Origin: Candidatus Latescibacterota bacterium
GTDB lineage: Bacteria > Latescibacterota > UBA2968 > GCA-2709665
Assembly: GCA_965203805.1 (NCBI GenBank)
Contig: OZ241917.1
Coordinates: forward strand, 4,128,001 to 4,192,000
Direction: 5' to 3'
DNA: 64,000 bases
Made by a program: the position numbers and the translations under genes
In this document: piece by piece, positions 12,823 to 62,552 of the stretch
Layout of the letters: each line of letters begins with the position of its first letter
Position numbering within the stretch: position 1 is the stretch's first letter
Notes under the pieces: model-generated
Told to the model about the DNA's origin: nothing
Seen by the model: the letters and a program-made list of their open reading frames with translations, nothing else
Databases searched by the model: none

Positions 12823-12863
12823 CCTGCCTGCGCCTGCCAGTGACGCTTTGGCAGGCAGGCAGG
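12823..12863. mobile_element. Nested micro-insertion elements (outer 18 nt; inner 12833-12855)
   Basis: CCTGCCTGCG[CCTGCCAGTGACGCTTTGGCAGG]CAGGCAGG inside the REP-like GGCAGACAGGAATGTCCG^CCCCACC. Confidence 0.75.
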
Positions 12864-12954
12864 CCCCACCTTCACAAACGCTTTCTCAACCGCTCGACCA
12901 GCCAGTGTGCGGGCGCAGGGAACTCAATTCCAAAAACGAAAAGGGCAGCCATCT

Positions 12955-15282
12955 ATGGACCTGACCCAATTCCACGACGATACGGTAATTTCTGAACAGG
13001 TGCTTGTCGATTCAGAGCTCGATGGGCATGTCCACCTGCGGGTGGACGCGGAGGACCTGCGCGGCGTGAATGAGATTCGCGCCGACGTGTATCTCCCGCC
13101 CGGGGCGAACGGACAGATCCGGTGCGGGCTGACGTCGGGTGATCGCACAGAGGGCATGAGTGAGGACGACGGTTATCTGTTCCTCGCCATCGTCTCACCG
13201 CGCGGCGGGAACGTCTGGGAGGGATGGCGTGAGTTCCGATTTCCTGCCGAGTGTTTCTATACGCAGGGGATACCATCCGGCTGGGGGCAGATGCGCTCGG
13301 TAACGCTGGACGGACCGCAGGACAGCCGGTTTCGCAACATTCGCCTTTTGGAACGGCAGGTCAGACCCGGACCGAGGATGACGGATGAGCAGTTTATCGC
13401 AACGCTGAATCCGGACCATCCCGGTCTGGGGATGATTCGTAGAGGGACCGCGGAGTCTGTCTTCCCGGATGTCGCGCGGTATTTCCGATCCAGCGGCTTT
13501 GACCGGGAACTGGTCCCGAGCGAGCGGGAGCCGAATGCCGATCCCGATCAGGCCGACCGGATCCTGGAAGGCCGGGTCCTGGGACAGGACTGGTCGACGG
13601 AGATCGACTGGGAGGCCAATCCTACCGGATACATCGAATGGACCCTGGCCATCCACTATCTCCTGTTCCTCAGGCCGGCAATCGACGCGTACTGGGAAAC
13701 CGGACAGGCGAAATACGCAACGGGCATCGAACGGTACATCAAGGACTGGATGCGGCGCTGCCCGGTCCCCTATGGCGTTCGCGCCGGGGGGTACCCATGG
13801 GGTCACTCTCTGGTCGTCGCCATTCGACCCTTCAGCACGCTCGTGGACGTCTTCCGCGTCCTCTGCGCGTGTCCGGAAACCGATGACGGCATGATCATCG
13901 ACATGCTCAAGTCGATCTACGAGCACCAGGTCTATCTGCTGAAGTTCCAATCCTTCCCGCCCTCGAACAAGACCATTGCCGAGGCCCGGACCATCGGCGC
14001 GCTGGGATGCGCTTTCCCGGAGTTCAGAGACGCCGCGTACTGGCGGGAAGCGGGATATCGCCGGCTGCTGGACGACATGCGCGTACAGGTGATGGCCGAC
14101 GGGGCCTCCTACGAACTCACGCCGGGTTACCAGATGAGTATTTCCACCTGGTTTCTGGAATCGTTTCAGGTGGCGCGAAAATTCAACCATCCGCTCGAGC
14201 CCGAACTGGAGGCCGGCATTCGATCGATGTTCGACTGGAGCGTGGCCATCACCCGGCCGGACTTCACCCGCCCCTCCGTTTCCGACGCCGGCAGCATGGA
14301 TTCGAAGTACGGTGATTCTCTCGCGCATCCCGGACGCGTCCTGGACAATCCGGCCGCGGTGTGGGTGGGCGCCGAGGGCCGCGAGGGTGCCCCGCCCGAC
14401 TACAACTCGATCGCCCTGCGGGACTCCGGATATTTCGTCATGCGCAGCGGTTGGGATGAGAACGCCCGGTATCTGTTCTTCGATGGAGGGCCCTACGGCC
14501 GCTGGCACCAGCACGAGGACAAACTCAACCTCGAAGTCTATGCCCACGGCACGCCTTACATTGTGGATCCCGGCATCACGTCCTACTACACCAACCCGTG
14601 GACCCGGTTCTACACGACCACACAGGCGCACAATACCGTCCTGGTGGACGGCCGCGCGCAGGCCCGGGGCCGCAATCAGACCATCGAACAATGGACCGAG
14701 TCCGCCCGCGGTTCAACCGTCTGGCGTTCGGATGACCGAAGCGACGTCGCCATGGCAAGCTACGACGCGCCCTACGCGGACCAGGATTCGCCGGTCCGGC
14801 ACCGCCGCGCCGTGCTATTTGTCAAACCGGATTATTTCATCGTTTTCGACGAGTTGACCGGCGAAGGCAGCCACACGTACGAGGCATTCTTCCATTTCAT
14901 GCCCTTCCGCCTGCTCACCGACCCGGACACCGGCGCCGTCCGGACCGGACGCATGGACGCACCCAACCTGGAACTCCTTCCCCTGACCAGGATGATGCCG
15001 CGGCTGATCTGCGGCCGGAACGATCCCGTGCAGGGCTGGCTCGCCATCGGCGGACAGGATGTCCCGGCCCCCGTGGCCGTCTACAAGAGGCGGAGCCGGC
15101 TGCCGTTCCGGACCGGGTACGTGATCTACCCGTTCGGCGCGGACCGCGTCACCGCCGGCGTCACCGCAAAAACCACTCGGCGCGCGGACGTATGGACCGT
15201 CAACATCGACCATGCCGGCGGCGGGCGGGACCGCGTGCGTATGGATTGGGGGGACGAGAAAGGCCCGGAGTTGATGAGGTGA
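12955..15282 (+). CDS. Heparinase II/III family polysaccharide lyase
   Basis: alpha/alpha barrel region with DGASYELTPGYQ, then SGYFVMRSGW, HQHEDKL, IVDPG..Y and AHNTVLVDG, typical of heparinase II/III-like lyases. Confidence 0.9.
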   Translation: MDLTQFHDDTVISEQVLVDSELDGHVHLRVDAEDLRGVNEIRADVYLPPGANGQIRCGLTSGDRTEGMSEDDGYLFLAIVSPRGGNVWEGWREFRFPAECFYTQGIPSGWGQMRSVTLDGPQDSRFRNIRLLERQVRPGPRMTDEQFIATLNPDHPGLGMIRRGTAESVFPDVARYFRSSGFDRELVPSEREPNADPDQADRILEGRVLGQDWSTEIDWEANPTGYIEWTLAIHYLLFLRPAIDAYWETGQAKYATGIERYIKDWMRRCPVPYGVRAGGYPWGHSLVVAIRPFSTLVDVFRVLCACPETDDGMIIDMLKSIYEHQVYLLKFQSFPPSNKTIAEARTIGALGCAFPEFRDAAYWREAGYRRLLDDMRVQVMADGASYELTPGYQMSISTWFLESFQVARKFNHPLEPELEAGIRSMFDWSVAITRPDFTRPSVSDAGSMDSKYGDSLAHPGRVLDNPAAVWVGAEGREGAPPDYNSIALRDSGYFVMRSGWDENARYLFFDGGPYGRWHQHEDKLNLEVYAHGTPYIVDPGITSYYTNPWTRFYTTTQAHNTVLVDGRAQARGRNQTIEQWTESARGSTVWRSDDRSDVAMASYDAPYADQDSPVRHRRAVLFVKPDYFIVFDELTGEGSHTYEAFFHFMPFRLLTDPDTGAVRTGRMDAPNLELLPLTRMMPRLICGRNDPVQGWLAIGGQDVPAPVAVYKRRSRLPFRTGYVIYPFGADRVTAGVTAKTTRRADVWTVNIDHAGGGRDRVRMDWGDEKGPELMR

Positions 15283-15311
15283 CATGGTCAGCCGACAGCA
15301 ACTGAAACACG

Positions 15312-17824: not shown

Positions 17825-19348
17825 ATGTCTATTTCGCGAAAAGGACTGATGCCGGCTATCGTCGGCTTTCTCGTCTCCGCCTGCACCCTGGCGCCGCGTT
17901 CGACGCCTGTCGTTTCCGAATCCGTTGCGGAACTCACCGATAGATCCGCCGGAGGCGACGTTGCCGGTTCAATCGAACGGCGCGAGTGGTGGAAAACGTT
18001 CGCCGACCCGGCCCTCAACCGGGTTGTCGAAGGAGTACTGGCGTCCAACTTCGATCTTGCAGGCGCGGTCGCACGGGTCGATCAGGCCAGGGCGCGGGCA
18101 CGCATCGCCAGGGCGCCGTTGTTTCCAACCCTTCAGCCATCGGCCGGCGTCAACGAATTCGATGCGCCCACCAATGCGGGTATCGGCGCGCAACTGGACG
18201 AATTGGGACTGGGTTCCAGCGCGTCCGGAATTGTCCTCCCCGATCGACTCGGCCTTACGACGTACACTGCCGCCGTGGAATTCGCCTACGAAGTGGACTT
18301 CTGGGGCCGGAACCGGAACGACGGTCTTGCCGCGGGAGCCGAACGCCTGGCCTCGGAGTCGGATTATCTGACGGCCCGTATGGGCGTGCTGGCCGAAACG
18401 GTGCGGACCTATCTCGAGATTGTCAACCTGCGCCACCAGAGGCGATTGACCGGTGAAATCACAGAGGTGCACGGGCAACGGGAGTCGCTGGCCGCGTCCC
18501 GTTACAACCGCGGGTTGATCGATGCCAGCGGCCTCCACCGGGCGCGGCAGGAAGCGCGCAACGCCCAGGCGGAACTGCCGCAGATCGAAGCTCTGCTGGC
18601 CGACGCGGAGGGGCGGCTCCGCGTGCTTATGGGAGACCACCGCGCGGATCTCGCGCGCATGCTGCCCGATTCCCTTGCACAGTCCAGCGCCCTGCAACCG
18701 GTTCCACCGGGCATCCCGACCCGTCTCCTGGCGCAGCGCCCGGACGTGATCGCTGCAAAGCAACGGATGGAAGCGGCCCGGTACCAGGTTGGCGCCCGTC
18801 GCGCGGACTTGGCGCCAAGACTCTCCCTGCACGGTTCCATCGGGCTGCAGAGTACGGAATCGAGCGAGTGGTTCAACCCGGAACAATGGTTCCGGAACCT
18901 GAGCATGAACCTTCTCGGACCCGTATTCCAGGGCGGGCGGCTGCGCGGCAACGTTGCGCTGGCCCAGGCGGGATTGAAAGCAGCGGTCGCGGCCTACGGG
19001 AGATCCGTGGTTACCGCGGCCAACGAGATTGAAGCCGCCCTTGCGGGGCTGGCCGCCAGCCGCCGCCGCCATTCGCTGCTGGCCTCGCTGTCGAAAACGG
19101 CGCTTGCAGAAAAAGAACTGCAGGAGCAACGGTACGTTTCGGGTGTGGTTGACTACGAGGTGCTCCTGACGGCGACGCAGACCCGGTTGGCAGCGGAATC
19201 ATTACTTGCCGCGGCAAAGCGCGACCTGGGCTACGCCCGCCTTGCGCTTCATCGCGCGCTGGGAGGCGCGTGGACCGCCGGCGACCTTCAGGCCCGCCGC
19301 CGGCAGCCGCCGAACCAGCGAATCCTCTCCCGACCTCCAACGGAGTAG
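17825..19348 (+). CDS. Efflux outer membrane lipoprotein (NodT/OprM family)
   Basis: Lipobox VSAC, WWKTFADPALN, YEVDFWGR, LLAQRPDV, ALGGAW. Confidence 0.95.
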   Translation: MSISRKGLMPAIVGFLVSACTLAPRSTPVVSESVAELTDRSAGGDVAGSIERREWWKTFADPALNRVVEGVLASNFDLAGAVARVDQARARARIARAPLFPTLQPSAGVNEFDAPTNAGIGAQLDELGLGSSASGIVLPDRLGLTTYTAAVEFAYEVDFWGRNRNDGLAAGAERLASESDYLTARMGVLAETVRTYLEIVNLRHQRRLTGEITEVHGQRESLAASRYNRGLIDASGLHRARQEARNAQAELPQIEALLADAEGRLRVLMGDHRADLARMLPDSLAQSSALQPVPPGIPTRLLAQRPDVIAAKQRMEAARYQVGARRADLAPRLSLHGSIGLQSTESSEWFNPEQWFRNLSMNLLGPVFQGGRLRGNVALAQAGLKAAVAAYGRSVVTAANEIEAALAGLAASRRRHSLLASLSKTALAEKELQEQRYVSGVVDYEVLLTATQTRLAAESLLAAAKRDLGYARLALHRALGGAWTAGDLQARRRQPPNQRILSRPPTE

Positions 19349-19354
19349 ATTGCC

Positions 19355-20566
19355 ATGTCCCGCAAGTCCAGTGCTTTAGCTGCCGGCGCGATTGTCGTGG
19401 TCTCCGTGGCTCTGGCCGCGCTGCTGATTTCGCTGGCGCCCGAACCCACCCGGATCGAACAGCCTCCCCAGGTGCCTTTCGTGCAGACGGGACCGGTTTC
19501 AGCCGGGTCCGGATCCATTCCGGTTTTCGGATCCGGTACGGTGAGGCCAGGCGCGGAGGTCGCTGTCGTCCCCCAGGTGGGCGGCAGGGTTGTCTGGGTG
19601 GATCCGGGATTCAAGAGCGGAGGAAGGGTCAGGGCGAGCCAGACGGTTTTTCGTATCGAAGAGGTCCATTACCGGTTTCGGGTGCTGGAAGCGGAGGCCA
19701 CTGTCGCGGCCAGCCGTGCGGCCTTTCTCAGGGAGCAGGAGCAGGCATCCATCGCACGCTCGCAGTTCGAACTCTACGCCGCGCCGCGGGGAGATGAGAC
19801 GCCTCCGGCCGATGCGAATCCGCTCGCGCTCAGGGAACCTCAGTTGAACGCGGCGCGGGCGGCGCTGAGCCGCGACGAGGCGAGGCTTGCCGATGCCAGA
19901 CTCGCCCTTTCGAAGACACGGATTACCGCGCCTTTCAATGGCCTTGTCCGCGATGAGTCCGTTAACGTGGGACAGGTCGTGAGCCCGGGCCAGCCGGTGG
20001 GCCGGCTGATCGCTTCGGACGCGGCGGAAGTGGTCGTTCCACTGTCCGATTCCGACGCCGCCATGATCCCGGGACTCTGGGATCTGAATGCGGGAGACGG
20101 TAAACGTGACGTGTCAGCACGGGTGATCGCACGGTACGGCGAGGCCCGGTATGCCTGGCAGGGGTACGTGGACCGGGCCGAGGCATCCCTCGACGAGCAG
20201 ACGCGCACCATCGATGTGATCGTACGCGTACCGGATCCGCTTACGGCAGGCGCCCCGACGGACGGGAACGCCAGTCCCGGCAGCAGTCCACCGCTTCTGG
20301 TGGGCGAATTTGTCGAGGTGGAAATAGAAGGGCTGGTTTTGGAACGCTATTTCAAGGTGCCGCGGGCGTCGCTGAAACCCGGCAACGAGGTCTGGATGGT
20401 GAAAGCCGGCGTTGTGAAGCTTGTTCCGGTTCGCGTATTGCAGCGCGCCGACGATAAAGTGTTCGTGACGGGTTCGCTCGAACACGGTCTGGCGGTGATC
20501 ACGGGCGGAGTTCAGTTCGCCACGGAGGGAATGCCCGTCCAGACGGAAACTGACGGGTCGCCATGA
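19355..20566 (+). CDS. RND efflux periplasmic adaptor subunit
   Basis: N-terminal TM, PQVGGRV lipoyl half, coiled hairpin, TRITAPFNG, TRTIDV. Confidence 0.95.
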   Translation: MSRKSSALAAGAIVVVSVALAALLISLAPEPTRIEQPPQVPFVQTGPVSAGSGSIPVFGSGTVRPGAEVAVVPQVGGRVVWVDPGFKSGGRVRASQTVFRIEEVHYRFRVLEAEATVAASRAAFLREQEQASIARSQFELYAAPRGDETPPADANPLALREPQLNAARAALSRDEARLADARLALSKTRITAPFNGLVRDESVNVGQVVSPGQPVGRLIASDAAEVVVPLSDSDAAMIPGLWDLNAGDGKRDVSARVIARYGEARYAWQGYVDRAEASLDEQTRTIDVIVRVPDPLTAGAPTDGNASPGSSPPLLVGEFVEVEIEGLVLERYFKVPRASLKPGNEVWMVKAGVVKLVPVRVLQRADDKVFVTGSLEHGLAVITGGVQFATEGMPVQTETDGSP

Positions 20567-23500
20567 GTCCGAACGGGAACAACCACGGGGAACGGCCGGG
20601 GCCGATCGCCTACATGGCCGAAAACGGCATCGCGGCCAATCTGCTGATGTGGGTTATTATCGCGTTCGGGCTGGTGTCGCTGACCGGCCTGGAGCGGGAG
20701 GCGTGGCCCACGGTTCCGTTTTACCATATTGAAGTCTCGATGGCCTATCCCGGCGCCACGCCGGAGGAGGTGGAGGAGTCGATCGTTGTCAAGATCGAGG
20801 ACCGGGTCAGCGGTCTGGACGACGTAAAGGCGGTCAAGTCCGTGGCGGCGCCGGGCATCGCGTCCGTCAGGATTCAGATGGATTCCGGAACGGACATGGC
20901 CCGGGCCCTGGACGATATCGAGTCCGCGGTCAATCGCATTCAGACGTTCCCGGGCGGCGCCGAACGTCCCCTCTTCTGGGAAATGACCAACCGCCAGAGT
21001 ATGATGCGGCTCATTGTCTACGGCGATGTATCGGAGCGCTCTCTGAAGGAACTGGCCTACCAGATCGAGGACGAACTCAAGACGCTTGCCTCCGTGTCCC
21101 AGGTGGAGGTCAGCGGCGTCAGGAATTACGAAATCTCCATCGAAATTCCGCTTCATCGACTGAGGGCTCTCGGACTTACGCTCAACGACATTGCCGACAC
21201 GATTCGCCGCAGTTCCCTGGACCTGTCGGCCGGAAGCATCAATACCCGGGAATCCCAGGTGCGTGTCCGGACCCTGGGCCAGAACTACAACCAGCAGGAC
21301 TTCGAAGACATCGTCCTGCTCAGCAACAGCGACGGAACGGTCCTGCGCGTTGGCGATATCGCCGACGTCCGCGACGGTTTTCAGGAAGCCGACCTGATCG
21401 TCCGACACCAGAACCAGCCCGCTGTATTCGTGGAGGTGTACCGGGCTGACGGCGAGCACGTAATGGATGTGGCCACGGCCGTGCGGGAGCACCTGGCGAA
21501 CGAGGTAATTCCGTCTCTGCCCGGCGGCGTGGGCGTTACCATCTGGAACGACGAGTCCCAGGACTTCAAGGAACGCACCGAGATTCTCATCAAGAACGGT
21601 ATCCTGGGCCTTCTTCTGGTGCTGGTCTCACTCAGCCTTTTTCTCCAGATCCGGCTGGCGATGTGGGTCGCCGTGGGTCTCGCCGTGTCGGGTATCGGCG
21701 CCATGGCGGCCATGCTTGTCCTGGACGTCGCGATCAACGCTCAGAGCCTGTTCTCATTCGTCCTCGCCATAGGTATTGTCGTCGACGATGCGATCGTCGT
21801 GTCCGAACTCATCGAGAAAGAACGCAAGCGGGGCACCCCCGGAGTCCAGGCTGCAATCCGCGGCGCCCGCAGAATAAAAGTACCGTTGATATTCGCGGTT
21901 CTCACCACGGTTGCCGCCTTCGTCCCGCTCCTGTTCATCCCCGGCGGCGTCGGTGAGTCCTGGCGGGCGCTGCCGATCATCATGATTGCCATCCTCCTGT
22001 TTTCCCTTGTCGAATCGCTGCTAATTCTTCCCAACCACCTCTCCCATATGCACGGTCCCGAATGGACGCCGAAAAACGCCTTCGATCGGTTATTCGCGCG
22101 GGTCCAGGGTCATGTCGACGTGCTGCTGAACCGGTTCGTGCAGGGACCCCTGGACAGGGCATTGCGGTTCGCGGCGGACCAGCCATGGGTGACCATGGCG
22201 GGAGCGGTGGGATTGCTCGTACTGTGTTTCGCTCTGGTGGGCGCGGGTATCATCTCGACGACGTTGGCGGCTGAGGTCGAGGGGGATTTCGCAACCGTGA
22301 CTCTGGAGATGCCCGACGGGACGACCGCCGCGAGGACTTACGAGGTGGCCCGGGAACTGGAGGCGGCCGGGCACCGGGTCATCGAACGACTCTCTCGCGA
22401 GCGACCCGCGGACGCGCCTCCGCTGCTTGCCGGCGTGATCGTGACGGTCGGCCAGCGGCCGCGGGTCCAGGGCGGAGGGCTGAACCCGGCGCCAACCCTG
22501 AATCCGGAAGCCAATGTCGCCACCGTCGAATTCAGACTATTGAGCGCTCAGCAACGGCAGGTCTCCACCGTTGATTTCGTTCAGGCCTGGCGCGAGGAAG
22601 TGGGGGTATTGCCCTACGTGAGGGGTATCACTTACAGCGGGGAGGTCATCGACTTCGGCAACCCCGTGGAGGCCGTCCTGTCCCATCCGAATCCGGAGCG
22701 CCTCGTCCGGGTCGCAGGGACGGTGGTCGACGGACTCCGCGGCATTGGGGGCGTCCACGACGTACGATCGGATCACGCGCCGGGTGTCCCGGAGGTTCAA
22801 CTCGAGTTGCGGCCCGAAGCGCAGACGCTCGGTCTCACGCTTGATGCATTGGCCGGCCAGGCGCGCGCCGCGTTTTTCGGAGCGGAAGCCGTCCGGATTC
22901 AGCGCGGGCGCGAGGAAGTCCGTGCCTACGTGCGGCTGCCCGAAGATGAGCGGAATTCCATTACCGATATCGAAGGGTACCTGATCCGGACGCCTAACGG
23001 TGCGGAGATTCCGGTAACCGGCGTTGCCGCGATGAAATCGGGCATGTCGCCGCCGGCCATTCGACGGAAGGACGGCCAGCGCGTGGTCACGGTTACTGCC
23101 GACGTGGACGCGGCGGTGATTTCCGGGGATGAAGCCAACGACATCCTGGCCAACTCGATTCTCGCGGACCTGACTGCCGCAGACCCGGACCTGACCTACA
23201 CGTTCGGGGGCGAGCAACAACAGCAGCTCGAGTCTCTCGATGCGCTGTTTCGCGGGTTCGCAATTGCGTTGATGATGATCTTCGTGCTGCTCGCCATTCC
23301 CCTGCGCTCCTACACCAAACCGTTCATTATTATGGCCGTCATCCCCTTCGGCCTGATTGGCGTGATCCTGGGTCACTGGGTCCTGGGGTTGGCCCTGAGC
23401 GCGGTATCGTTCATGGGTGTCTTCGGCCTGAGCGGCGTGGTTGTGAACGATTCCCTGGTGATGATCGATTTCATCGATCAGAAACTCAATGAAGGCGCCC

Positions 23501-23739
23501 CGGTGCGAACCGCGATCATCGAAGGCGCAAAGGGGCGTTTTCGTCCGATTATGCTCACTTCCCTTACGACTTTCCTCGGCTTTTTCCCCCTCATTCTGGA
23601 ACGCGCCATTCAGGCCCAGTTCCTCGTCCCCTTCGCAGCGTCGCTCGGTTTCGGCATCGTCATCGCCACGTCAATCCTGCTGATGGTCGTTCCCGCGCTC
23701 TACGCGATCCGTTTGCATCTGGTTCCCGTGCGGGATTGA
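20563..23739 (+). CDS. RND efflux permease (AcrB family)
   Basis: YPGATPEEVE, GIVVDDAIVV, GVVVNDSLV, RFRPIMLTSLTT; ATGA overlap with the adaptor gene. Confidence 0.96.
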   Translation: MSPNGNNHGERPGPIAYMAENGIAANLLMWVIIAFGLVSLTGLEREAWPTVPFYHIEVSMAYPGATPEEVEESIVVKIEDRVSGLDDVKAVKSVAAPGIASVRIQMDSGTDMARALDDIESAVNRIQTFPGGAERPLFWEMTNRQSMMRLIVYGDVSERSLKELAYQIEDELKTLASVSQVEVSGVRNYEISIEIPLHRLRALGLTLNDIADTIRRSSLDLSAGSINTRESQVRVRTLGQNYNQQDFEDIVLLSNSDGTVLRVGDIADVRDGFQEADLIVRHQNQPAVFVEVYRADGEHVMDVATAVREHLANEVIPSLPGGVGVTIWNDESQDFKERTEILIKNGILGLLLVLVSLSLFLQIRLAMWVAVGLAVSGIGAMAAMLVLDVAINAQSLFSFVLAIGIVVDDAIVVSELIEKERKRGTPGVQAAIRGARRIKVPLIFAVLTTVAAFVPLLFIPGGVGESWRALPIIMIAILLFSLVESLLILPNHLSHMHGPEWTPKNAFDRLFARVQGHVDVLLNRFVQGPLDRALRFAADQPWVTMAGAVGLLVLCFALVGAGIISTTLAAEVEGDFATVTLEMPDGTTAARTYEVARELEAAGHRVIERLSRERPADAPPLLAGVIVTVGQRPRVQGGGLNPAPTLNPEANVATVEFRLLSAQQRQVSTVDFVQAWREEVGVLPYVRGITYSGEVIDFGNPVEAVLSHPNPERLVRVAGTVVDGLRGIGGVHDVRSDHAPGVPEVQLELRPEAQTLGLTLDALAGQARAAFFGAEAVRIQRGREEVRAYVRLPEDERNSITDIEGYLIRTPNGAEIPVTGVAAMKSGMSPPAIRRKDGQRVVTVTADVDAAVISGDEANDILANSILADLTAADPDLTYTFGGEQQQQLESLDALFRGFAIALMMIFVLLAIPLRSYTKPFIIMAVIPFGLIGVILGHWVLGLALSAVSFMGVFGLSGVVVNDSLVMIDFIDQKLNEGAPVRTAIIEGAKGRFRPIMLTSLTTFLGFFPLILERAIQAQFLVPFAASLGFGIVIATSILLMVVPALYAIRLHLVPVRD

Positions 23740-23914
23740 GCGAAATCCGCGCAAGTGTGGCGTTTTGAAGGGCAACCCTTGTGGTTGTCCGCCTTTGACG
23801 TTGTTTTTATTACGATTTAGACTTGCCCGATCAAGGCTCATCGTTATATTTGTTAGAGGCGTATCAAGGGAAATTGCAGTGCGGTATCGAGACTATACCG
23901 GGGGGCGAAGGCCG

Positions 23915-25942
23915 ATGGCTGTCAAGAGTGGGGAGCAGGCGACCGAAACGCTGTGTTTGCACGATGAACTCATCCTGATGCTCCTCAACGAGGAGAACGG
24001 CTACTTTCATCAGGTACCCGGGTGGGATCTGAACTGCGCCGTCGTCGGCGCGGTACTCGCGGACCTCTCTCTGCGGTCGCGAATCGACACGGACATGGCA
24101 TCGCTGTTTCTTGTGGACCCCACGGAAACTGGCGATCCCGCCCTGGATCCCATTCTGAAGGAAATCGCAGACGAGCCGGCTCAACACAACACCCAGTACT
24201 GGATTGAACGGCTGGCGCCCCATGCCGAGGCAGTCATTGATTACACGCTGGACCACCTGGTCGATCTCAAGATCCTTGAACACCACGACGGCGATTTCTG
24301 GACGGTGTCACATACGGTCTGGCAGTCAGAATTTTACGGCGACTACCAGGAAGGCACCGCAGGCCAGTTCATCAAGACGCGTATCAGCAGGGCCATCTTC
24401 TCGAACGAAATTCCCGATCCGAGAGACGTCATAATCATCTGCCTCGTCAACACGTGCGACGTCTTTCGCTTCATATTCCAGCTCGACGAAAAGGCGGAGG
24501 CTCGCATCGAGGCCATCTGCAGGATGGACCTGATCGGCCGGTCCATCGCCGCTGCGGTTGCCCATAACCTGGCCGGACCGCTGCTGCGCCGTTCCACCCT
24601 GACCAAGCACATTCCGCGTGTAACGCTGCGCGACGTCGTGTTCAGTCGCCATGTCCGAAGCGGCAACATACCCGCGCTTCTGGCAGATCTCACACAGAAG
24701 TACGGCCCGGTTTTCGAGATGCGTCTGCCGTTTGCGAAACCCATGGTCTTCCTTTCCGGGCCAGAGCCGAACCGATGGGTGCATCGGCACGGGCGAATGT
24801 ATCTAAGATCCAGGGACTATTTCGCCGACTTCGAGAAAATCTATGGCGCGTCCGGCGTGTTGCCCTCCCTGGACGGCGCCGATCATTTCCGGCTTCGCAA
24901 AGCTTTGTCGCCTGCTTATTCAAGAGCGAGACTGGTTGCGCAACTGGACAAGCTCTACCATTATGCTCGCAACTACATGGCGGATTGGTCGGTTGGCGAC
25001 GCGTACCCTGCAACGCCTACGTGCCGGCGGATGATCAACGCGCAGATCTCACCTCTGTCCGTGACGGTGGATACGCAGGATATCATCGACGATCTGATCG
25101 AGTACAAAGAGCGCGCGCTCAGCACCCACATCATCGGGGCCCTGCCCAAATTCCTGCTGAACACACCGGGAATGAAACGACGGGCGAAAGGCGTGGACAC
25201 CTTGCTGGAACGGATCCAGGGTGTCCATACGCCCGCCCAGCGGGCCGGTTGCCCGCGAAATCTTGCCGATGACCTGTTGAGTCTGAACGCGAGCGATCCA
25301 CAGGTCGTACCCGAGTCGAATCTGCGTTTCGCTCTGTCAGCGGCGCTGATTGCCAGCGTGTATCTTGGCGATGCGTTCAGCTTTGCGTTGTACGCCATGG
25401 CGTCACAGCCTCCACTTTACGAGAAGATCCGGAGTGAGGCCGACGCCCTGTTTGAGAACGGAGACCCCGATGGCGAAGACTTCACGCCATCCGCGATCGA
25501 CGTCACTCACCGCTTCCTCATGGAGTGCCTGCGGATGTATCCCATTGTCCCCCTGTCCATGCGAAACGTGATGAATACGTGCGTGGTCGAGGGTTACGAG
25601 ATACCTGTGGGGACACGGGTCTACATTGCGCAGACAGCCCCGCATTACATGGATGACGTCTTCCCTGACCCCTTCACGTTCGATATCGACCGGTATCAGG
25701 CGCCTCGAAACGAGCACCGCAGTCCCGGATACGCGCCGTTCGGGCTGGGCACGCATACGTGTCTCGGCTCCAGGTGGCTGGAGTTGCAGCTGGCCGCCAA
25801 CGTGCTGATGGTGGCGCACTACTTTACGATCGAGGTGTCCCCGGCGAACTATATGCTCAAATTCAGCCCGATACCTTCGATGAAACCGAGCAAGAAGCTG
25901 AAGTTTCACGTTGCCGAGAAAAGGCGCGAACTTCCCGTCTGA
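23915..25942 (+). CDS. GPP34 (GOLPH3/Vps74)-like domain fused to cytochrome P450
   Basis: N-terminal LHDELILMLLNEENG..GAVLADLSLRSRI..TGDPALD..L..I (GPP34-like). C-terminal P450 with ECLR (ExxR), FPDPFTFDIDR and FGLGTHTCLG heme ligand. Confidence 0.88.
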   Translation: MAVKSGEQATETLCLHDELILMLLNEENGYFHQVPGWDLNCAVVGAVLADLSLRSRIDTDMASLFLVDPTETGDPALDPILKEIADEPAQHNTQYWIERLAPHAEAVIDYTLDHLVDLKILEHHDGDFWTVSHTVWQSEFYGDYQEGTAGQFIKTRISRAIFSNEIPDPRDVIIICLVNTCDVFRFIFQLDEKAEARIEAICRMDLIGRSIAAAVAHNLAGPLLRRSTLTKHIPRVTLRDVVFSRHVRSGNIPALLADLTQKYGPVFEMRLPFAKPMVFLSGPEPNRWVHRHGRMYLRSRDYFADFEKIYGASGVLPSLDGADHFRLRKALSPAYSRARLVAQLDKLYHYARNYMADWSVGDAYPATPTCRRMINAQISPLSVTVDTQDIIDDLIEYKERALSTHIIGALPKFLLNTPGMKRRAKGVDTLLERIQGVHTPAQRAGCPRNLADDLLSLNASDPQVVPESNLRFALSAALIASVYLGDAFSFALYAMASQPPLYEKIRSEADALFENGDPDGEDFTPSAIDVTHRFLMECLRMYPIVPLSMRNVMNTCVVEGYEIPVGTRVYIAQTAPHYMDDVFPDPFTFDIDRYQAPRNEHRSPGYAPFGLGTHTCLGSRWLELQLAANVLMVAHYFTIEVSPANYMLKFSPIPSMKPSKKLKFHVAEKRRELPV

Positions 25943-26014
25943 CGTGCCGTGGCGACGGGGGGGTTGAAAAAACGTCTCCCGAACTTTCGGTCCGCCCGGG
26001 AATGTGTTTTCAAC

Positions 26015-26051
26015 AGGAGCCTGTCGGAAAACCTCTGACAGGCTTCTTTTT
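26015..26051 (+). terminator. Intrinsic terminator after the P450 gene
   Basis: AGGAGCCTGTCGG...CTGACAGGCTTCT followed by a T tract. Confidence 0.7.
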
Positions 26052-26111
26052 AGTTTTATCGGGGAGCAACCTGTAGTCTACATCCTCATCGCGCAAAGAT
26101 AAGGGGTACCT

Positions 26112-27491
26112 GTGGGAAAGAGTGAAGAACTGCGGCGCATCGCCATCGTCGGCGGAGGCATATCGGGTCTGGGGGCCGCGTGGGCGCTGCATTGTCACCC
26201 GGACCGGTTCGATTTCCGGCTTTTCGAGGCTGAGGATAGGATCGGCGGGAATGCGATTACAGCGGATATGCCGCAGGATGACGGCGCCGCCATTCCCTTC
26301 GACATTTCCGTCACCGCCTGTATTCCATCGATATATCGGCACATCCTGCTCCTGATGGCGTCGTTCGGCATTGATCTGGTCGATACCAGATTCAGCTACA
26401 GCGTAAGGTATCGCGGCGGCATCTACGCCCACGATTTCGACTCCGATATCAGAAAGCAGTTGCAATTCGAGATCGCAAAGTTCCAGCGGCTTCTGTCACG
26501 ACTGCATGGGTTCGGCAGGCTGACCCGCTCCCGGTCAAGATTTCTGAACGCCCTCAATCCGTTCAACTACGTCAGCATGGAGACGGTCCTGAACTTTGCC
26601 GGGTTTTCCGGGGACTTCAGGTATAAGGTACTGAAGCCCATGTTTGTCAATTTCCTGATGGCGACCAACGTGTTCGATATGCCCGCAGCGCTCTTCTCGA
26701 GATATCTCGATTTCTTCAATATCGAAACCGCCACGCCCATGCAGACGTGGGATCAGGGAACGCGACGCATCTACGAGAACCTGGCCGCTGGCTTTCGGGA
26801 CAGGATTTGCCTCAACCGTCCTGTCCGGAAGGTGTTCCGCGGGTCGTCCCACGTTGTGGTCGAGGACGAGCATGGCGTTAAGGAGACGTTTGACGACGTG
26901 ATTTTCGCATGCAATGCGAACCAGACGCTGATGATGCTCGACAGACCCTCGATGCTGGAGCGCTATATTCTCTCCTCAATACGATACGAGAGCGAACTCC
27001 ACAACCATACGATCGTCCACTCCGACGCGTCGGTACTTCCGAATAACGAAGTGAAACCCCTCACAACGCGGAGCAATCACATCGAACAATACGGCGCCAG
27101 ACCGGACAACTATGAAATCACGTATATCATGCACAACCAGCAACCGTGGGCGAACCGGTCCGACCGGCCCTGTCTGGTGACCTACAACCCGATCAGCCGG
27201 ATCGATTCACGAAAGATCATCGGCAGGTGGTGGTTTCAGCATATTGTCCACGATGTGCGCCACGTTGCCTGGCTCGTTCCCCTGTTCCGCTTCATTCAGG
27301 GCAGGAAACGGACCTGGCACTGCGGCGCCCATACGCTGGTCAACAGCCAGGAGACCTGCTTTGTGAGCGGGCTCGCGACCGCAACACAGATCGGCGCGGA
27401 CTACCCCTTCGACGATTCAGAGGCAAAGCGGTGGTTCAACTATTACGGGAACATCATGTATGGCTGGAGGTTCAGGAAAGCGAGGGGCTGA
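26112..27491 (+). CDS. FAD-dependent oxidoreductase (amine oxidase fold, COG2907-like)
   Basis: IAIVGGGISGLGAAW, LFEAEDRIGG, FDDVIFAC, VHSDASVLP, QG..RTWHCGA. Confidence 0.85.
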   Translation: MGKSEELRRIAIVGGGISGLGAAWALHCHPDRFDFRLFEAEDRIGGNAITADMPQDDGAAIPFDISVTACIPSIYRHILLLMASFGIDLVDTRFSYSVRYRGGIYAHDFDSDIRKQLQFEIAKFQRLLSRLHGFGRLTRSRSRFLNALNPFNYVSMETVLNFAGFSGDFRYKVLKPMFVNFLMATNVFDMPAALFSRYLDFFNIETATPMQTWDQGTRRIYENLAAGFRDRICLNRPVRKVFRGSSHVVVEDEHGVKETFDDVIFACNANQTLMMLDRPSMLERYILSSIRYESELHNHTIVHSDASVLPNNEVKPLTTRSNHIEQYGARPDNYEITYIMHNQQPWANRSDRPCLVTYNPISRIDSRKIIGRWWFQHIVHDVRHVAWLVPLFRFIQGRKRTWHCGAHTLVNSQETCFVSGLATATQIGADYPFDDSEAKRWFNYYGNIMYGWRFRKARG

Positions 27492-33132: not shown

Positions 33133-34305
33133 ATGAACAGTAAGCGAATCGACAAACTGGAAAAGCAGGTTCATTATCAGAAGTGGGGTCTTATTGTATT
33201 GATGAGTTTGTTTTTATTTACTTCGACTCCTGGAATTACTGAGATAACGCAAAGGGTTTTATTACCCAAAGAATTACTCACGGAATCACTTTCCGGTATC
33301 TATTCACAAAAAACAATAGGTGATGTACCAGAATCTCCCTTGAGAGTTACACCTGCTAAGAAGATAGCTCAAGCGGCAGGAGATATATTGACTGTCAGTC
33401 AAATAAATGTTGTCGATGCTATAGGTAGAACACTTGCCCAAATTGGATCAGATTCCGATGGTAATGGAGGCATATGGTTATACAATCTTAAAGGCAACGT
33501 AGTAATGTGGTTAGGGAGTGATCAGAATCTACATGGTGCCCTAACAGCTTCCACTAGTAATGAAGTAACTGTGGCAACTATTCAGTCAGTAGTTGATGAG
33601 GAAGATCAGAATATTGTAACGGGAAGGGTAACAGTACAAGGTTCAGGAGATTCTGCGGCAACGCTCGGTGCGGATGAATTCGGAGATGGTTATACAGCTG
33701 TATTCAATAGACAAGGTCAGGTTGTTGCTTACCAGGGTATCGATAGGTTGGGTAATGGTAATATCTTAGCGTACAACAAACAAGGCGAAACTATAGCTTC
33801 TATAGGGGCCTCCAGCGAAGGCACTGGCTATTTGAGCGTGTTCGAACGAGGAAATCTCGTTGCGAATTTGGCTGCTTTTAAAGACGTAGGGGGGGGATTG
33901 CGACTGACGAATAAGAATGGCAGAACAGTTGTTGCGCTGGGGCCCAGTATCGGAAATACTGGTGTCATTAGTGTTATAAGCACAACTGGTGAACCAAGAG
34001 CAATTGCTTTGATAGGCGCTGATTCTGTTGATAGCGGCTTATTGGCTGTTCTAGATGCAACTGGAGAACCAACGGCTTTAATGACCAATAGATATTTGGG
34101 TATTGCTGAACACCAATTTGAAGCGTATATAGATGATAATGGAAACGGTGTGGTCGAAACACGATCAGCGAATGGTGATATTCGCTGGTCTTCAGAAACT
34201 GTAGTGCAGCCATCGGGATTATTGGGCGATTTGGATGGAGACGGTGATGTTGATTTTAACGACTTCCTCGCATTCGCACAGAATTTCGGAAAAGAGGGCG
34301 GTTAA
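33133..34305 (+). CDS. Membrane-anchored beta-repeat protein with C-terminal EF-hand/dockerin-like motif
   Basis: Coiled coil + TM, then ~23-aa repeats (hxhxN/DxxGxxhhxhGxxxxGxG), C-terminal GDLDGDGDVDFNDFLAFAQNFG. Low GC. Confidence 0.8.
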   Translation: MNSKRIDKLEKQVHYQKWGLIVLMSLFLFTSTPGITEITQRVLLPKELLTESLSGIYSQKTIGDVPESPLRVTPAKKIAQAAGDILTVSQINVVDAIGRTLAQIGSDSDGNGGIWLYNLKGNVVMWLGSDQNLHGALTASTSNEVTVATIQSVVDEEDQNIVTGRVTVQGSGDSAATLGADEFGDGYTAVFNRQGQVVAYQGIDRLGNGNILAYNKQGETIASIGASSEGTGYLSVFERGNLVANLAAFKDVGGGLRLTNKNGRTVVALGPSIGNTGVISVISTTGEPRAIALIGADSVDSGLLAVLDATGEPTALMTNRYLGIAEHQFEAYIDDNGNGVVETRSANGDIRWSSETVVQPSGLLGDLDGDGDVDFNDFLAFAQNFGKEGG

Positions 34306-34349
34306 ACAACAAGCCCGGAGAACCATAATCTCTGGGCTTGTTGTTTAAC
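34301..34349. terminator. Bidirectional terminator
   Basis: GTTAAACAACAAGCCCGGAGA...TCTCTGGGCTTGTTGTTTAAC long stem. Confidence 0.75.
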
Positions 34350-34899: not shown

Positions 34900-34995
34900 C
34901 CAGTCTGCGTGCGTGCTACACCTGCCTGCGCCTGCCTGTCCCGTTGGAACGGCAGACAGGCCAAGCCCCGCGCGGCATGCAGGCGCACAGGCAGG
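34900..34995. mobile_element. Triple-nested micro-insertion elements (middle 34921-34983, inner 34931-34960)
   Basis: Removing layers in turn regenerates the element seen at 51401-51433 (reverse), an element like 49432-49461, and finally the empty REP site at 40204-40230. Confidence 0.8.
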
Positions 34996-35055: not shown

Positions 35056-35082
35056 TCTGCCTGCCTGCGACGCACAGGCAGG
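35056..35082. mobile_element. 27-nt micro-insertion element
   Basis: TCTGCCTGCCTGCGACGCACAGGCAGG; two differences from the copy at 42966-42992. Confidence 0.7.
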
Positions 35083-40087: not shown

Positions 40088-40377
40088 CGTCCCGGCTGAT
40101 GCGATCCTTGAAGCACCACTATAAAGTGGGGCATTGTTGCGGTACCAGCCATCCTGCTTTCCATCGAGGGCAGGATGCCCTCGTTCCCGGCAAAAAGGCC
40201 GATGCGGGCGAGACGCCCGCGCTCCCAGGGGAGACTGGCCGTCGCGCGGCAGGCAGGCGCCGTCTTTGCATTTCTAGGGGCGACCGGCCGGTCGCCCCTA
40301 CAGCGGCGCACGGGCGGTTCGCGAACCGTTCCATCCTGTTCATCCATGTTGCATCCTTGACGTCACGCATGTCATCA

Positions 40378-41103: not shown

Positions 41104-41450
41104 TAGTAACAACCTCCTATATGTGATTCGGGGATGCTGCGACCGCCATTTCTTCGCTGAATTATGTGTAGTCTTTCCGATGCCCCGATTGAAAAGCAGA
41201 CCACCGGCGCGGCGACCTGGCTTGCCCTGTATGCGCCCGTCTGTGCTGCAGGCACGCGCTGTCTTTGCATTGCACGGGCGGTTCGCGAACCGCCCCTTGC
41301 CGTTTCGTCAACGCGTTTGGATTTTCAAGGAACGCGTCAAAAAGGGATTGCTTGCGGCATCGTCGCGTTCTAACATAGTGTAGAGTGCATGGAAGTCGTC
41401 AAAACGGCCCGGGCTATTAACGGCGCCTTCAGCGCGAAAGAGGTGAGGTC

Positions 41451-42965: not shown

Positions 42966-42992
42966 CCTGCCTGCATGCGACGCACAGGCAGG
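42966..42992. mobile_element. 27-nt micro-insertion element
   Basis: CCTGCCTGCATGCGACGCACAGGCAGG at a G^C step after CCACAAGAGG. Confidence 0.75.
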
Positions 42993-49418: not shown

Positions 49419-49481
49419 CCTGCCTGCAGCGCCTGTCTGCGTGCGTACACGCACAGGCAGGCAGGGCACTGCGCAGGCGGG
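49419..49481. mobile_element. Nested micro-insertion elements (inner 49432-49461)
   Basis: CCTGCCTGCAGCG[CCTGTCTGCGTGCGTACACGCACAGGCAGG]CAGGGCACTGCGCAGGCGGG inside CCACAAGGGG^CACAAAAA. Confidence 0.75.
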
Positions 49482-50977: not shown

Positions 50978-51010
50978 CCTGCCTGCCGAGCAGGCTTCGG
51001 CGCAGGCAGG
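50978..51010. mobile_element. 33-nt micro-insertion element
   Basis: CCTGCCTGCCGAGCAGGCTTCGGCGCAGGCAGG; its reverse complement matches the outer element at 62490-62552. Confidence 0.75.
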
Positions 51011-51400: not shown

Positions 51401-51433
51401 CCTGCCTGCCGCGCGGGGCTTGGCGCAGGCAGG
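51401..51433. mobile_element. 33-nt micro-insertion element
   Basis: CCTGCCTGCCGCGCGGGGCTTGGCGCAGGCAGG; its reverse complement matches the middle element at 34921-34983. Confidence 0.75.
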
Positions 51434-56505: not shown

Positions 56506-58260
56506 CCTATGTTTATTTATAAAACGATAGTATTTAGCCCCAATTATTCACAAAAAAGGTAGTTTCCTTACCCAAGTCATTGTATTATATTATGGTTAGG
56601 CGAATAACCATAACACAATGAAACAGGAGGAAACTACCGTGGAAGGTCAAGATAGTCAACTCACAGTTCCGTTCGCAAGTGTTTCTGGCAAGCAGGTGGA
56701 AGCCGTCTTCGACGGCGGTGTGCTCACCAGCCTGCCTGCTGCAGGCAGGCGATATCGGGTCGATGTTGCTTCGAGAGGTGGAGTCCAGGATCGGCATTTT
56801 GTCTCGGATCGTCGAGGCGTTACCGGACCGTCGGCATCCCAGTTATGTGGATCACACGATGTCGGATCTGATCAGCCAGCGTGTGTTTCAGATCGCGTGC
56901 GCGTATGAAGATGCGAACGATTGCGATTTGCTGCGCTTTGACCCCGCGTTCAAGGCGGCCTGTGGTCGGTTGCCGATATCAGGGACGCCGTTGGCCAGCC
57001 AACCCACGATGAGTCGTTTGGAAAACGGCATTCGTCGCCGGGACTTATATCGTATTGCCGAGGCCTTGGTGGACGGGTTTATCGCGTCCTACAAGCGGCC
57101 TCCCAACGCGGTCGTTCTGGATATCGATGACACCGACGACGAGGTTTACGGCTGTCAACAGTTGGCGATGTTCAATGGCTATTATGGTGAACGCTGTTAC
57201 TGTCCCTTGCATATCTATGAAGGGCAGACAGGAAGACTGATCACGACGCTTTTGCGTCCGGGCGCCCGTCCTACCGGCAAACAGATTGTCACCGTTCTCA
57301 AGCGACTGGTGAAACGCCTTCGCGAGGCGTGGCCGCACGTGCGACTCTTTTTGCGTGGCGACGGCCATTTTTCCTGTCCCGAGGTCCACGACTTTTGCGA
57401 CGTGCAAGAGGTGTATTTCGTGCTGGGACAGACGGGCAATGCCAGGCTTGCACAACGGGGACACGCGCTGATCGAGCAGGCAAAGGCACAGTATCGGGAG
57501 ACCGGACAGCCTGTGCAGCGATTTACCAGTTTCGCTTACCAGGCAGATTCCTGGGCCGTGCCAAGACGCATCATCTACAAAGCTGAAATCACCGCTTCCG
57601 GACAAGCCAATACACGCTTTGTCGTCACCAACCTGAAGAGTAGCCAACCCTCATTCCTCTACAAAACCGTCTATTGTGCGCGCGGCCTGTCTGCCGGCCA
57701 GGCAGGCAGGATGGAAAACTTCATCAAGAATCACAAAACCTTCCTCCATTCCGATCGTACCTCCTGCCACACCTTCGAAGCCAATCACTTCCGTCTCTTA
57801 CTGCATAGTGCCGCTTATGTCCTGATGCACACCCTTACCGAAAAAGGACTCTGGACCACCCAATGGACGCACGCGCAGTTTAATACCATTCAGAATCGCA
57901 TCCTCAAAGTCGCCGGGAGAGTGTCCGAACTCAAAACCAAAATCAAACTCCATTTGCCAACCTCATTTCCCTTGAAACACCTCTATGGCACCATCCTATG
58001 CAATTTGGCAAAGGCAGTTCCATAACGCAGACGCTTCACGCAGGCAAAGCCGTCCCTTTCTCATCGCCAAAAGTAAGACCAAGGCATCCGTCTGTCCTTT
58101 CCATCCACAAATCAAAGAACTCGACACCCCTCGATGCTGACAGACCACCCAAAATTACGCATTATCCCGTCACCAACACGTCATTTGACTATTTCCCCTT
58201 CTATAGATCACTTTTTGCTTCCAAAAACACTGTTCCGTTCAGTTTCATGAATTAGTCAGG
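56506..58260 (+). mobile_element. IS1380-family insertion sequence (ends approximate)
   Basis: Contains an IS1380-type transposase. The right end TTTCATGAATTAGTCAGG pairs imperfectly with the left CCTATGTTTATTTATAAAAC. Confidence 0.75.
56639..58025 (+). pseudogene. IS1380-family DDE transposase, frameshifted by a 19-nt insertion and carrying a 21-nt in-frame insertion
   Basis: FDGGVLTS|DIG, YEDANDCD, LASQPTMSRLEN, LDIDDT, RGDGHF, YCARG|RMENFIK. Removing 56731-56749 joins ORFs 56618 and 56679 in frame. GTG 56639 has an AGGAGG RBS. Confidence 0.9.
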
Positions 58261-60335: not shown

Positions 60336-60377
60336 CAGAAGCCCCTGGTCAGATATAATTTTGCCCAGGGGCTTCTG
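60336..60377. terminator. Terminator-like hairpin
   Basis: CAGAAGCCCCTGG...CCAGGGGCTTCTG. Confidence 0.65.
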
Positions 60378-60910: not shown

Positions 60911-62404
60911 TCAGTTTTCAATTCTGTCGAATAACGCCTCGACTTCCGCCTCCTTCTCCTCACTGCGTTTGCTGATGTATCCCCCGCCGAAGTAGATGAC
61001 CAGCGCGACCAGGATCTCCACGCCTGTGTAAATCTCGAACCTGTCGGTGTATTGAATCATGATAAAATAGGTGATCACACCGCCGATAAAAGACAGGACC
61101 GCGCCCCGCGCCGTGGGTCGTTTCCAGATCATCCCGAACATCAGCGGGATCGCGATGGGTGACAGGAGGCCGCCGAACAGCTTCACGGTGAGGGAAAATA
61201 CCTTGTTCATGCCCTGACTCTGGGAGATCACGACCGCGGTCACCAGGACCGCGATGCCGAAAATCGCCGTGATGGTCATCCCCGCCCTGAACAGCGCCCT
61301 GTCGTCGATCTCGCGCCTGAAATTGCGCTGGTAGAAGTCTTTGGTGAACACCGCGGCGAGCGCGTTGATATCGCTGTCGATCATGGACATGGTCGCGGCA
61401 AACATGGAGCATACGAGCAGACCGATCAGCCCGGGCGCCAGGGCCGACAGAATTTTCTGCGTGACGAGGATATAGGTCTGGTCCAGATCGAAACCGGCGA
61501 CCGGCTGCAGGGTCACCGGATCGAAATACTCGGGCATCAGCAGCGGCGCGGCCCAGGCGGGGACGAAGATGACGATGGGATAGAACAGATAGAGAATCGC
61601 CGACAGGAGCGCCGCCCTCTGGGCATCCCTCGGTTTCTCCACCGACACGAATCGCTGCGCCAGGCCCCAGGTGCCCCCATTGTAGCTGAAGATGATCACA
61701 ACCACGTAGACCAGCCAGAAGCTCACGCCGATCCCGCCCGCTTCATTGAAGAATCCGGCGCGTTCCCGCGGCAGGCTGTCCCACATCGCGTTCCAGCCGC
61801 CCACCATATCCAGCGCGATGAACAGTACAGCCAGACTCATGACGAGCTGTACCACGAATTGGACCAGGTCCGTAAGTACGGTCGCCCACAGCCCGCCGAT
61901 AAACACGTAGGCGATGGTAATCAGACCGGAAACGACGATCACGGGCAGCACCGCCCAGCCGGTCACCACGTGGACCACGATCGAGATCGCGAACAACTTG
62001 ATGCCGAGGTCGATGAACTTGATGAGGATCCCGGAAACCGCGATCAGACCCCTCACGGAATTGCCGTAGCGCGCTTCCAGGTACTCCACCGGCGTCAGCA
62101 CTTTCAGCCGCGACCATCTCGGCGCCCAGACAAGGCATCCGATCACCAGCGCCACGAACACGCCGAGAGAAAACAGGGTCCACATGCTGAACCCCGCGAC
62201 TGCCGCGCGGCCGGCGAAACCCACGAATGCCACCGCGCTGTATCCCGATACATGGTGTGAGATCGCCGCCATCCACCAGGGCAACCCGTGCCCCGCCGCG
62301 AAGTACTGTTCCACATTAGCGGACTTCCGCTTCGCCAGAATCCCTATCCATGCCATCAGTACCGCGTACACCGCAATGACGGCATAATCGACTTGTGTCA
62401 GCAT
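60911..62404 (-). CDS. Sodium:solute symporter family protein
   Basis: QYFAAGHGLPWW, TPVEYLEARYG, GGLWATVLTD, AQRFVS, FAATMS. Confidence 0.95.
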   Translation of the reverse strand: MLTQVDYAVIAVYAVLMAWIGILAKRKSANVEQYFAAGHGLPWWMAAISHHVSGYSAVAFVGFAGRAAVAGFSMWTLFSLGVFVALVIGCLVWAPRWSRLKVLTPVEYLEARYGNSVRGLIAVSGILIKFIDLGIKLFAISIVVHVVTGWAVLPVIVVSGLITIAYVFIGGLWATVLTDLVQFVVQLVMSLAVLFIALDMVGGWNAMWDSLPRERAGFFNEAGGIGVSFWLVYVVVIIFSYNGGTWGLAQRFVSVEKPRDAQRAALLSAILYLFYPIVIFVPAWAAPLLMPEYFDPVTLQPVAGFDLDQTYILVTQKILSALAPGLIGLLVCSMFAATMSMIDSDINALAAVFTKDFYQRNFRREIDDRALFRAGMTITAIFGIAVLVTAVVISQSQGMNKVFSLTVKLFGGLLSPIAIPLMFGMIWKRPTARGAVLSFIGGVITYFIMIQYTDRFEIYTGVEILVALVIYFGGGYISKRSEEKEAEVEALFDRIEN

Positions 62405-62489
62405 AGACCTTTCCTGTGAAGATGATTAGTCAGATTAACGATATGTGTGCGCCGTGACCTCGCCCCTCAGGGATACCCTCACCCCCCGG

Positions 62490-62552
62490 CCTGCCTGCGC
62501 CTGCCTGTCCCATTGGAACGGCAGACAGGCCGAGACCTGCTCGGCAGGCAGG
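62490..62552. mobile_element. Nested micro-insertion elements (inner 62500-62529)
   Basis: Inside the REP-like CCCTCACCCCCCGG^CCCCCTCTCCCAAGGGGAGAGGG; the inner element differs from 34931-34960 by one base. Confidence 0.8.

Follow-up and report, generated by a model that had tools for sequence, protein, structure and literature searches.

How repeats of only a few tens of bases spread through bacterial genomes is an open question, and it is posed by a 64,000-nt stretch of a Candidatus Latescibacterota genome (assembly GCA_965203805.1, contig OZ241917.1, positions 4,128,001 to 4,192,000; G000:C1:4128001-4192000, here called the window), in which palindromic units of a family measuring 18-46 nt are lodged within other repeats, within a transposase gene and within one another. 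The genome concerned, G000, comprises 5.87 Mb with 59% GC on a single contig, and the sequencing runs containing the window derive from sponge, coral and marine metagenomes. An initial annotation, made from the letters of the window alone, had listed 15 such units and taken them for a mobile DNA class; all 15 have been found at their positions, and their mobility has been borne out by exact empty sites within G000 and by filled and empty orthologues in sister genomes. We therefore regard the units as almost certainly a non-autonomous, very small mobile DNA.

Anatomy and precise insertion of the units

The units are bounded by the ends CCTG(C/T)CT...AG(G/A)CAGG. The window holds 13 paired-end matches compared with a mean of 0.01 and a maximum of 1 in 100 order-3 Markov simulations, and in G000 the 10-mer GCCTGCCTGC occurs 163 times with 18 occurrences expected, while the two end motifs follow each other as left-then-right in 292 pairs and in reversed order in 25. 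Recursive collapse of nests has resolved 223 loci into 262 units (227, 30 and 5 per nesting round), the 30 and 5 units recovered in rounds two and three upholding the self-nesting that had been described; units with degenerate ends would raise the total by no more than a few dozen (50 relaxed matches, 22 in the control). The fold consists of a 7-bp outer stem, CCTG(C/T)CT / AG(G/A)CAGG, usually followed by a 2-nt bulge (GC in 44 of the 51 distinct units that fit this model) and a variable inner stem-loop, and the terminal inverted repeats extend over 7-9 bp. Lengths cluster at 19, 21, 27, 30, 33 and 36 nt, among which 30 and 33 dominate and 21 and 27 are present. A supposed 31-nt class has turned out to be a 27-nt unit with four host bases.

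Exact removal of a unit has given a site that exists empty elsewhere in G000 for 128 of 746 candidates and for none of 254 control candidates, in which the end motifs stand in reversed order. Because copies multiply along with their host repeats, the 128 matches represent 74 site/length pairs, which fall into 47 host contexts. A scan with 4-nt ends and spans up to 4 kb has returned 128 matches versus no non-tandem match in two control motif pairs, and among the 12-60-nt indels collected between repeats without regard to motif, the units have been the only recurrent hairpin family. Eight aligned copies of an insertion sequence (IS) of the IS1380 family have provided four exact filled/empty pairs of 19, 33, 21 and 21 nt; in the copy at G000:C1:1368671-1369928, the stretch between two units has been lost, apparently via recombination between their shared left ends. 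Recombination of this kind yields composite units, and the 37- and 41-nt blocks are apparently nests trimmed in the same way. Nesting itself is seen at 14 of the 74 confirmed sites, with one 30-nt type nearly always at one homologous position within other units. [quoted passage not shown]

Single-copy genes have allowed a comparison of orthologous alleles. In the gene at G000:5540063, six of the 14 genomes compared carry a 33-nt in-frame unit, which is decayed in several; the site is empty in G012, which is 94% identical to G000, and also in G009, yet G009 is sister (100/99) to the filled G006 within a filled clade. Such a pattern implies either repeated gain or a precise loss, the latter being probable in G009. 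At 1261191, in a second gene, the site is filled only in G000 among the 14 genomes, with 11 clean empty alleles and two larger deletions, the net gap being 27 nt because G000 lacks one adjacent codon. Assemblers can stumble on GC-rich palindromes, and contigs rather than raw reads have been compared; an assembly or sequencing artefact is nevertheless practically excluded by the contig of another sample that reproduces the junctions at 34900 and 49449 (spanning 33900-34948 without any difference), by the filled orthologues in five other genomes with several decayed copies, and by the presence of the family in unrelated phyla and phages.

Targets, lengths and distribution

The 47 confirmed host contexts comprise 37 junctions of the type G^C, seven A^C/G^T, two A^T and one G^G, so that 46 lie between a purine and a pyrimidine (R^Y), a step that accounts for 25% of the genome. 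The annotation had favoured insertion at R^Y without target duplication. The preference has proved strong, although it is no strict rule, as the G^G site has been confirmed in IS1380; the lack of duplication has been substantiated by the empty-site comparisons and the non-GC sites. In addition, 12 of 49 unbiased cases have a junction ambiguity of no more than 0-1 nt, by which an obligatory 2-nt duplication is ruled out. A preference for hairpin DNA as such, also proposed, has gained no support: judged by eye, stem bases, stem interiors and positions next to loops all contain insertion points. Since the hosts are non-essential repeats and transposase genes, the pattern is equally well accounted for by selection against harmful sites. 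In a rough gene model, predicted coding sequence holds 43 of the 223 loci though it makes up 78% of G000, and the coding hosts are mostly DDE transposases of several families. The remaining loci lie in REPs and in repeats which we take to be MITE-like, BoxC-like and heptamer repeats, with 123 of the 223 left unclassified by a rough motif count.

Unit lengths are mostly multiples of three (3n). This holds for 64 of the 74 confirmed sites, for 41 of 49 unbiased unit indels compared with 59 of 220 other G000 indels (a few degenerate family members included in the latter), and for 68 of 80 loci of a wider genome collection, 13 of them from three Latescibacterota genomes. In-frame units have been found in DnaE, TsaD (twice), a Mur ligase, a DnaG-like protein and a polyprenyl synthetase, in both orientations and with codon phase 2 in 12 of the 18 cases read, and a stop codon in at least one frame is found in 11 of 55 units versus 15.5 in shuffles (p=0.065). 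The length bias probably reflects selection on the element, given that a unit which keeps the frame can persist within a gene, and units explain short odd peptides (LPA..QAG, PAC..AGR) in essential proteins of many uncultured bacteria. The bias is not universal, as 19- and 20-nt units occur. Length class tracks gene density: the acidobacteriotal genome G130 (L671-L676) has mostly 19-nt units, none of them seen in a predicted open reading frame (ORF), and the 0.8-Mb Patescibacteria genome G129 (L662-L670) has 18- and 36-nt units, 15 of the 17 seen sitting inside ORFs.

The number of units per genome ranges from 0 to 208 within the genus, and the unit-rich members of the phylum, out of 111 genomes, are limited to family f1 and G024; the same types of unit occur in records titled as Latescibacterota. 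Outside the phylum, ten genomes picked for holding one match contain 3-78 copies each. According to record titles, the units are multi-copy in at least seven phyla, namely Bacteroidota, a deltaproteobacterium, Verrucomicrobiota, Methylomirabilota, Nitrospirota, Patescibacteria and Acidobacteriota, and phage contigs also carry them. The loci L092, L093, L309 and related viral loci are prophage-like contigs with units at differing positions, one site being both filled and empty.

Candidate movers and rival explanations

As to what moves the units, we give about even credence to a trans-acting single-strand enzyme of the HUH type. Movement would be a single-strand nick-and-rejoin, in which an enzyme encoded elsewhere would bind the folded stem, cut at R^C and G^Y, and release a small closed hairpin to be joined into another R^Y step, the likeliest chemistry being HUH/Y1 and similar to that of REP-associated tyrosine transposases (RAYTs). 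Cutting and rejoining of one strand at the hairpin base fits better than duplex transposition, because both junctions of a unit are the same type of dinucleotide step, insertion leaves the target bases complete and unduplicated, and units can be as small as 18-19 nt. According to the excerpt cited, TnpA-REP cleaves single-stranded DNA at one dinucleotide on either the 5' or the 3' side of a bulged hairpin and is able to join it again (PMC8266576). When 80 loci of other genomes are oriented by their bulge, pyrimidines make up 69 of the 3' flanks, 76 of the 5' flanks carry a base other than T, and C^C occurs in 15 compared with 6 for G^G, an asymmetry that suggests the use of one strand.

Several observations weigh against such an enzyme, and our confidence has been held at this level because the units show neither a guide tag nor replichore bias nor wobble polarity. 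A GTAG/GTGG guide has not been seen at the unit foot, the flanks being variable host sequence; leading and lagging strands are used alike (82 versus 89 of 171, binned), and G.T and A.C configurations give no strand signal (10 versus 9). R^Y has been found in only 49 flank pairs of the 80 loci in other genomes, which are taken without empty-site confirmation, and the loss in G009 could be gene conversion. As the annotation had stated for the window, no mobilising enzyme is linked in cis: no gene bracketed by units has been found in G000, among 51 other-phylum neighbours or in the small Patescibacteria genome, nor has a long autonomous version with an empty site been found for spans up to 4 kb, a search which a single-copy version would escape. 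Y1 genes are no guide to copy number (found in 10 of 13 rich versus 30 of 48 poor genomes), and the PF01797 search behind these counts is insensitive, with some RAYTs missed; PF01797 is not discriminating as a marker of the mover. G024, with 32 units, has yielded no match to the G000 RAYT. Several of the genomes compared are incomplete, and absence of a gene there means that it was not found.

Other candidates have been discarded. Small GIY-YIG proteins have not been found in G000 and are common in unit-free genomes; the four-helix-bundle family PF05635 occurs in 13 of 15 genus genomes, unit-poor ones included; and the GxxExxY family PF13366, likewise in 13 of 15, does not track copy number. 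A Rep_trans-like IS has not been found in 9 of 13 rich genomes and is itself a host: its protein L148 (G000:C1:2954924-2956528) contains an in-frame 33-nt unit, and G001 and G008 mostly have copies shorter by 33 nt. Clustering of the neighbours of viral loci has returned only prophage structural genes, and a Pfam search of 51 of 74 selected other-phylum neighbour ORFs has returned no nuclease family. A RAYT-like Y1 domain has been observed within a protein of about 1200 aa at L012:478-3000, with an in-frame 27-nt unit just upstream, and long frames akin to it exist in G008, G011, G016 and G054.

A further lead concerns an abundant REP with a GTGG or GTAG foot (stem CAGRCA/TGYCTG), whose stem arm is identical to the 9-nt element end. 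About 1% of such 9-mers fall in abundant G000 repeats, or 2% for two variants. The variable pair of the REP stem is that of the element ends as well, and it is compensated (AT 109, GC 43, mixed 6). In 14 of 32 inverted REP doublets, the inner segment carries both exact 8-nt element ends; these 32 close doublets, at the metagenome loci L519-L646, have unique spacers and resemble REPINs. An inverted pair of the GTGG-footed REP brackets the RAYT genes L515 and L514 (G016:C1 near 1069996 and 2478275), both of which are apparently frameshifted near their start. G000 has about 50 copies of this REP and no close RAYT (best 39% identity), the respective clade being missing. Outside the genus, the GTGG-footed REP is present in 3 of 4 rich versus 0 of 42 poor genomes, and G024 alone among 21 congeners has both the REP and units. 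It is conceivable, though improbable, that the units are escaped REPIN-like doublet cores which have turned into 18-46-nt replicators, tuned to frame-keeping lengths and moved across phyla by a RAYT-type HUH enzyme, the escaped core being the interloop segment of an inverted GTGG-footed REP pair. That REP might, at a similarly low probability, be either the origin of the units or a shared recognition motif. Against this lead stand the presence of the REP in all 15 genus genomes regardless of unit count, its absence from G015 (133 units) and from five of five other-phylum genomes, and the doublet cores themselves, of which only 10 of 32 are 3n in length and none is identical to a free unit. If the units were nevertheless escaped cores moved in that way, this would provide the first named mover of elements in the class of the cyanobacterial small dispersed repeats (SDRs) and place the units among the smallest transposing DNAs known.

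The absence of a linked enzyme has also to be read from the opposite side, namely that host recombination or repair alone copies the units, by template switching, microhomology-driven gene conversion or ligation of hairpins into nicks. The near confinement of one 30-nt type to one homologous position in other units resembles conversion, one IS1380 copy bears the trace of recombination between shared ends, and copies multiply with host repeats (74 site/length pairs in 47 contexts). First insertions have occurred, however, in unrelated sequence without homology (IS1380, single-copy genes), the ends are base-exact across phyla while the inner part varies freely, and a range from 0 to about 200 copies in one genus is poorly explained by a universal pathway, so that we consider this explanation unlikely. 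A small hairpin RNA, reverse-transcribed or spliced into DNA, would account for the stable folds and the conserved architecture, and such a route has reportedly been discussed for cyanobacterial SDRs. It appears quite unlikely for the units, as RNA energies give no strand advantage (mean difference -0.03 kcal/mol), units lie in genes in both orientations, neither a duplication nor a tail accompanies them, and the window contains no Rfam match.

Turning from the copying route to particular enzymes, a DUF559 nickase (Vsr-like PD-(D/E)XK) might open the target or free the hairpin, with host repair finishing the insertion. Full-length DUF559 is present in 9 of 9 genus genomes with at least 9 units versus 0 of 6 with 0-3, in 12 of 13 rich versus 13 of 48 poor genomes among 61 relatives (kin and thus non-independent), and in all four rich genomes of a first other-phylum test. 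It has not been found, however, in G024 (32 units), G128 (49), G129 (12) and G130 (78), which leaves four of seven rich genomes outside the phylum, no single DUF559 clade marks rich genomes, and the genes are bracketed by BoxC-like repeats even in unit-free genomes; a role of this nickase is therefore very doubtful. Such brackets have been observed in most genomes examined (L387, L407, L382-L411), several of the DUF559 sequences being domains of 600-900-aa proteins. Terminal inverted repeats, the prevalence of G^C (37 of 47) and the many DDE transposases of G000 would suit a minimal MITE of a DDE transposase with GC duplication, or a serine or IS110-type recombinase with a 2-bp GC core. Sites of the types A^T, A^C/G^T and G^G contradict these readings, as both target bases and the whole unit are retained there, an outcome expected neither from a duplication nor from a staggered 2-bp core. 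Units of 19-21 nt also look too short for synapsis of duplex ends, and no IS with unit ends and an empty site has been found; both versions are accordingly highly improbable.

Comparable known systems and the units of the window

By analogy, the units seem to work most like the cyanobacterial SDRs. In Nostocaceae, Elhai et al. are said to have described in 2008 the repeats SDR1-8, of 21-27 nt, nested and lodged in heptamer repeats and miniature transposons; nested mobile SDRs of this size are a precedent for tiny mobile repeats. In the excerpts cited, SDR5 inserts between bases 3 and 4 of HIP1 (PMC4390886), and SDRs were not found in HIP1-rich cyanobacteria outside Nostocaceae (PMC5861425); passages citing SDRs are also contained in PMC2884548 and PMC3116915. 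Both kinds of element are hairpin-like, measure tens of bases, insert precisely, nest and lodge in repeats, and no mover has been named for either. In contrast to the SDRs, described from Nostocaceae, the units occur in at least seven non-cyanobacterial phyla and in phages, have constant ends, measure 18-46 nt and are relaxed in their R^Y target, SDRs being compared here by description rather than by sequence. No description of the motifs or peptides of the units has been found in the open-access literature.

Other systems share single features. REPs and REPINs with their RAYTs resemble the units in size, the bulged stem, a palindrome of 20-40 nt and a mostly extragenic position in G000, whereas the units have no GTAG, GTGG or CGTC foot tag and flank no RAYT, RAYT loci being bracketed by other repeats, and REPs serve as their hosts. 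Rickettsia palindromic elements (RPEs) also insert in frame into conserved genes and add short peptides, although in the passages cited they measure about 105-150 bp and are lineage-restricted, in contrast to the units of 18-46 nt that nest and have non-3n variants (PMC3184786, PMC10969869). MITEs are described in the cited parts of two articles as non-coding, with terminal inverted repeats and in need of a trans-acting enzyme (PMC3184786, PMC3733652); at 70-300 bp they are far longer than the units, which have neither target duplication nor a partner IS and for which MITE-like repeats are hosts. IS200/IS605 elements, so far as the cited excerpts describe them (PMC6006769, PMC8266576), share the lack of target duplication and the folded single-strand ends, and differ in their fixed target tetranucleotide, replication-strand bias and separate left and right hairpins. 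The units are thus real, mobile and widespread elements of the SDR kind with unusually clear rules, and by the features tested they are not a MITE, REP or RPE. They offer a sharply defined test object: their ends are exact, the target preference covers two bases, a single genome holds filled as well as empty alleles, a precise loss is probable, and the 19-nt frameshifting variant is a ready reporter. If an enzyme pastes a 20-30-base hairpin scarlessly at R^Y, its chemistry would be of interest in itself.

Within the window, the 41-nt unit at 12823..12863 lies at G^C in a GTGG-footed REP hairpin, for which 13 empty paralogues have been found. The host REP (12806..12872, minus strand; stem CAGACA/TGTC(C/T)G), whose stem arm equals the 9-nt element end, is split by the unit. 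The annotation had counted two units here; the block and its empty site are confirmed, and it can be read as two nested units, although neither piece has been found alone in G000 and the two-unit reading is unproven. At 34900..34995, where the empty-site scan has given a match, a three-level nest consists of a 33-nt outer unit with a degenerate left end, a 33-nt middle unit with a degenerate right end at an A^C site (34921-34983) and a 30-nt inner unit (34931-34960). Its proposed empty counterpart, the host REP at 40204..40230 (plus strand), is indeed the only close empty match to the nest, and the right half of a unit remains at 40236..40257 (plus strand). The recurrence of cores across sites has been corroborated: 34931 and 62500 are one base apart, 34921 matches the reverse complement of 51401, 62490 and the reverse complement of 50978 match in type, and 35056 and 42966 match except for degenerate ends. 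The latter two are 27-nt units at 35056..35082 (degenerate left end, A^T flanks) and 42966..42992 (G^C flanks); both are present, and their empty sites are unconvincing, with one match at four mismatches for the former and none for the latter.

A two-level nest at 49419..49481, with a 33-nt outer and a 30-nt inner unit (49432-49461), has three near-empty host copies, and a second one, at 62490..62552 in a BoxC-like repeat, combines a 33-nt outer with a 30-nt inner unit (62500-62529) and is supported by the empty-site scan. The same scan supports the 33-nt units at 50978..51010 and 51401..51433, each within a MITE-like host. Contigs show 33-nt skips at 50976 (three runs) and 51399 (one run) with short sides of 18-34 nt, which have been left out of the empty alleles because they possibly represent paralogous host repeats. 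The IS1380-family transposase gene at 56639..58025 (plus strand; PF13701) is the host of two units and not their mover: a 19-nt unit at G^C (56731..56749), missing from five of eight aligned copies, frameshifts the gene, and a 21-nt unit (57686..57706), missing from four of eight, is in frame. The presence of the latter unit had been annotated correctly, and its true extent is 21 nt, followed by CAGG of the host.

Among the other genes of the window, those at 17825-27491 encode an efflux protein of the outer membrane together with HlyD and AcrB; a fusion of GPP34 with cytochrome P450 comes next, along with a flavin oxidoreductase. A HEPN AbiU2-like gene (40378-41112) and a gene for a 1077-aa WD40-repeat protein (35418-38651) lie amid repeat-rich spacers.

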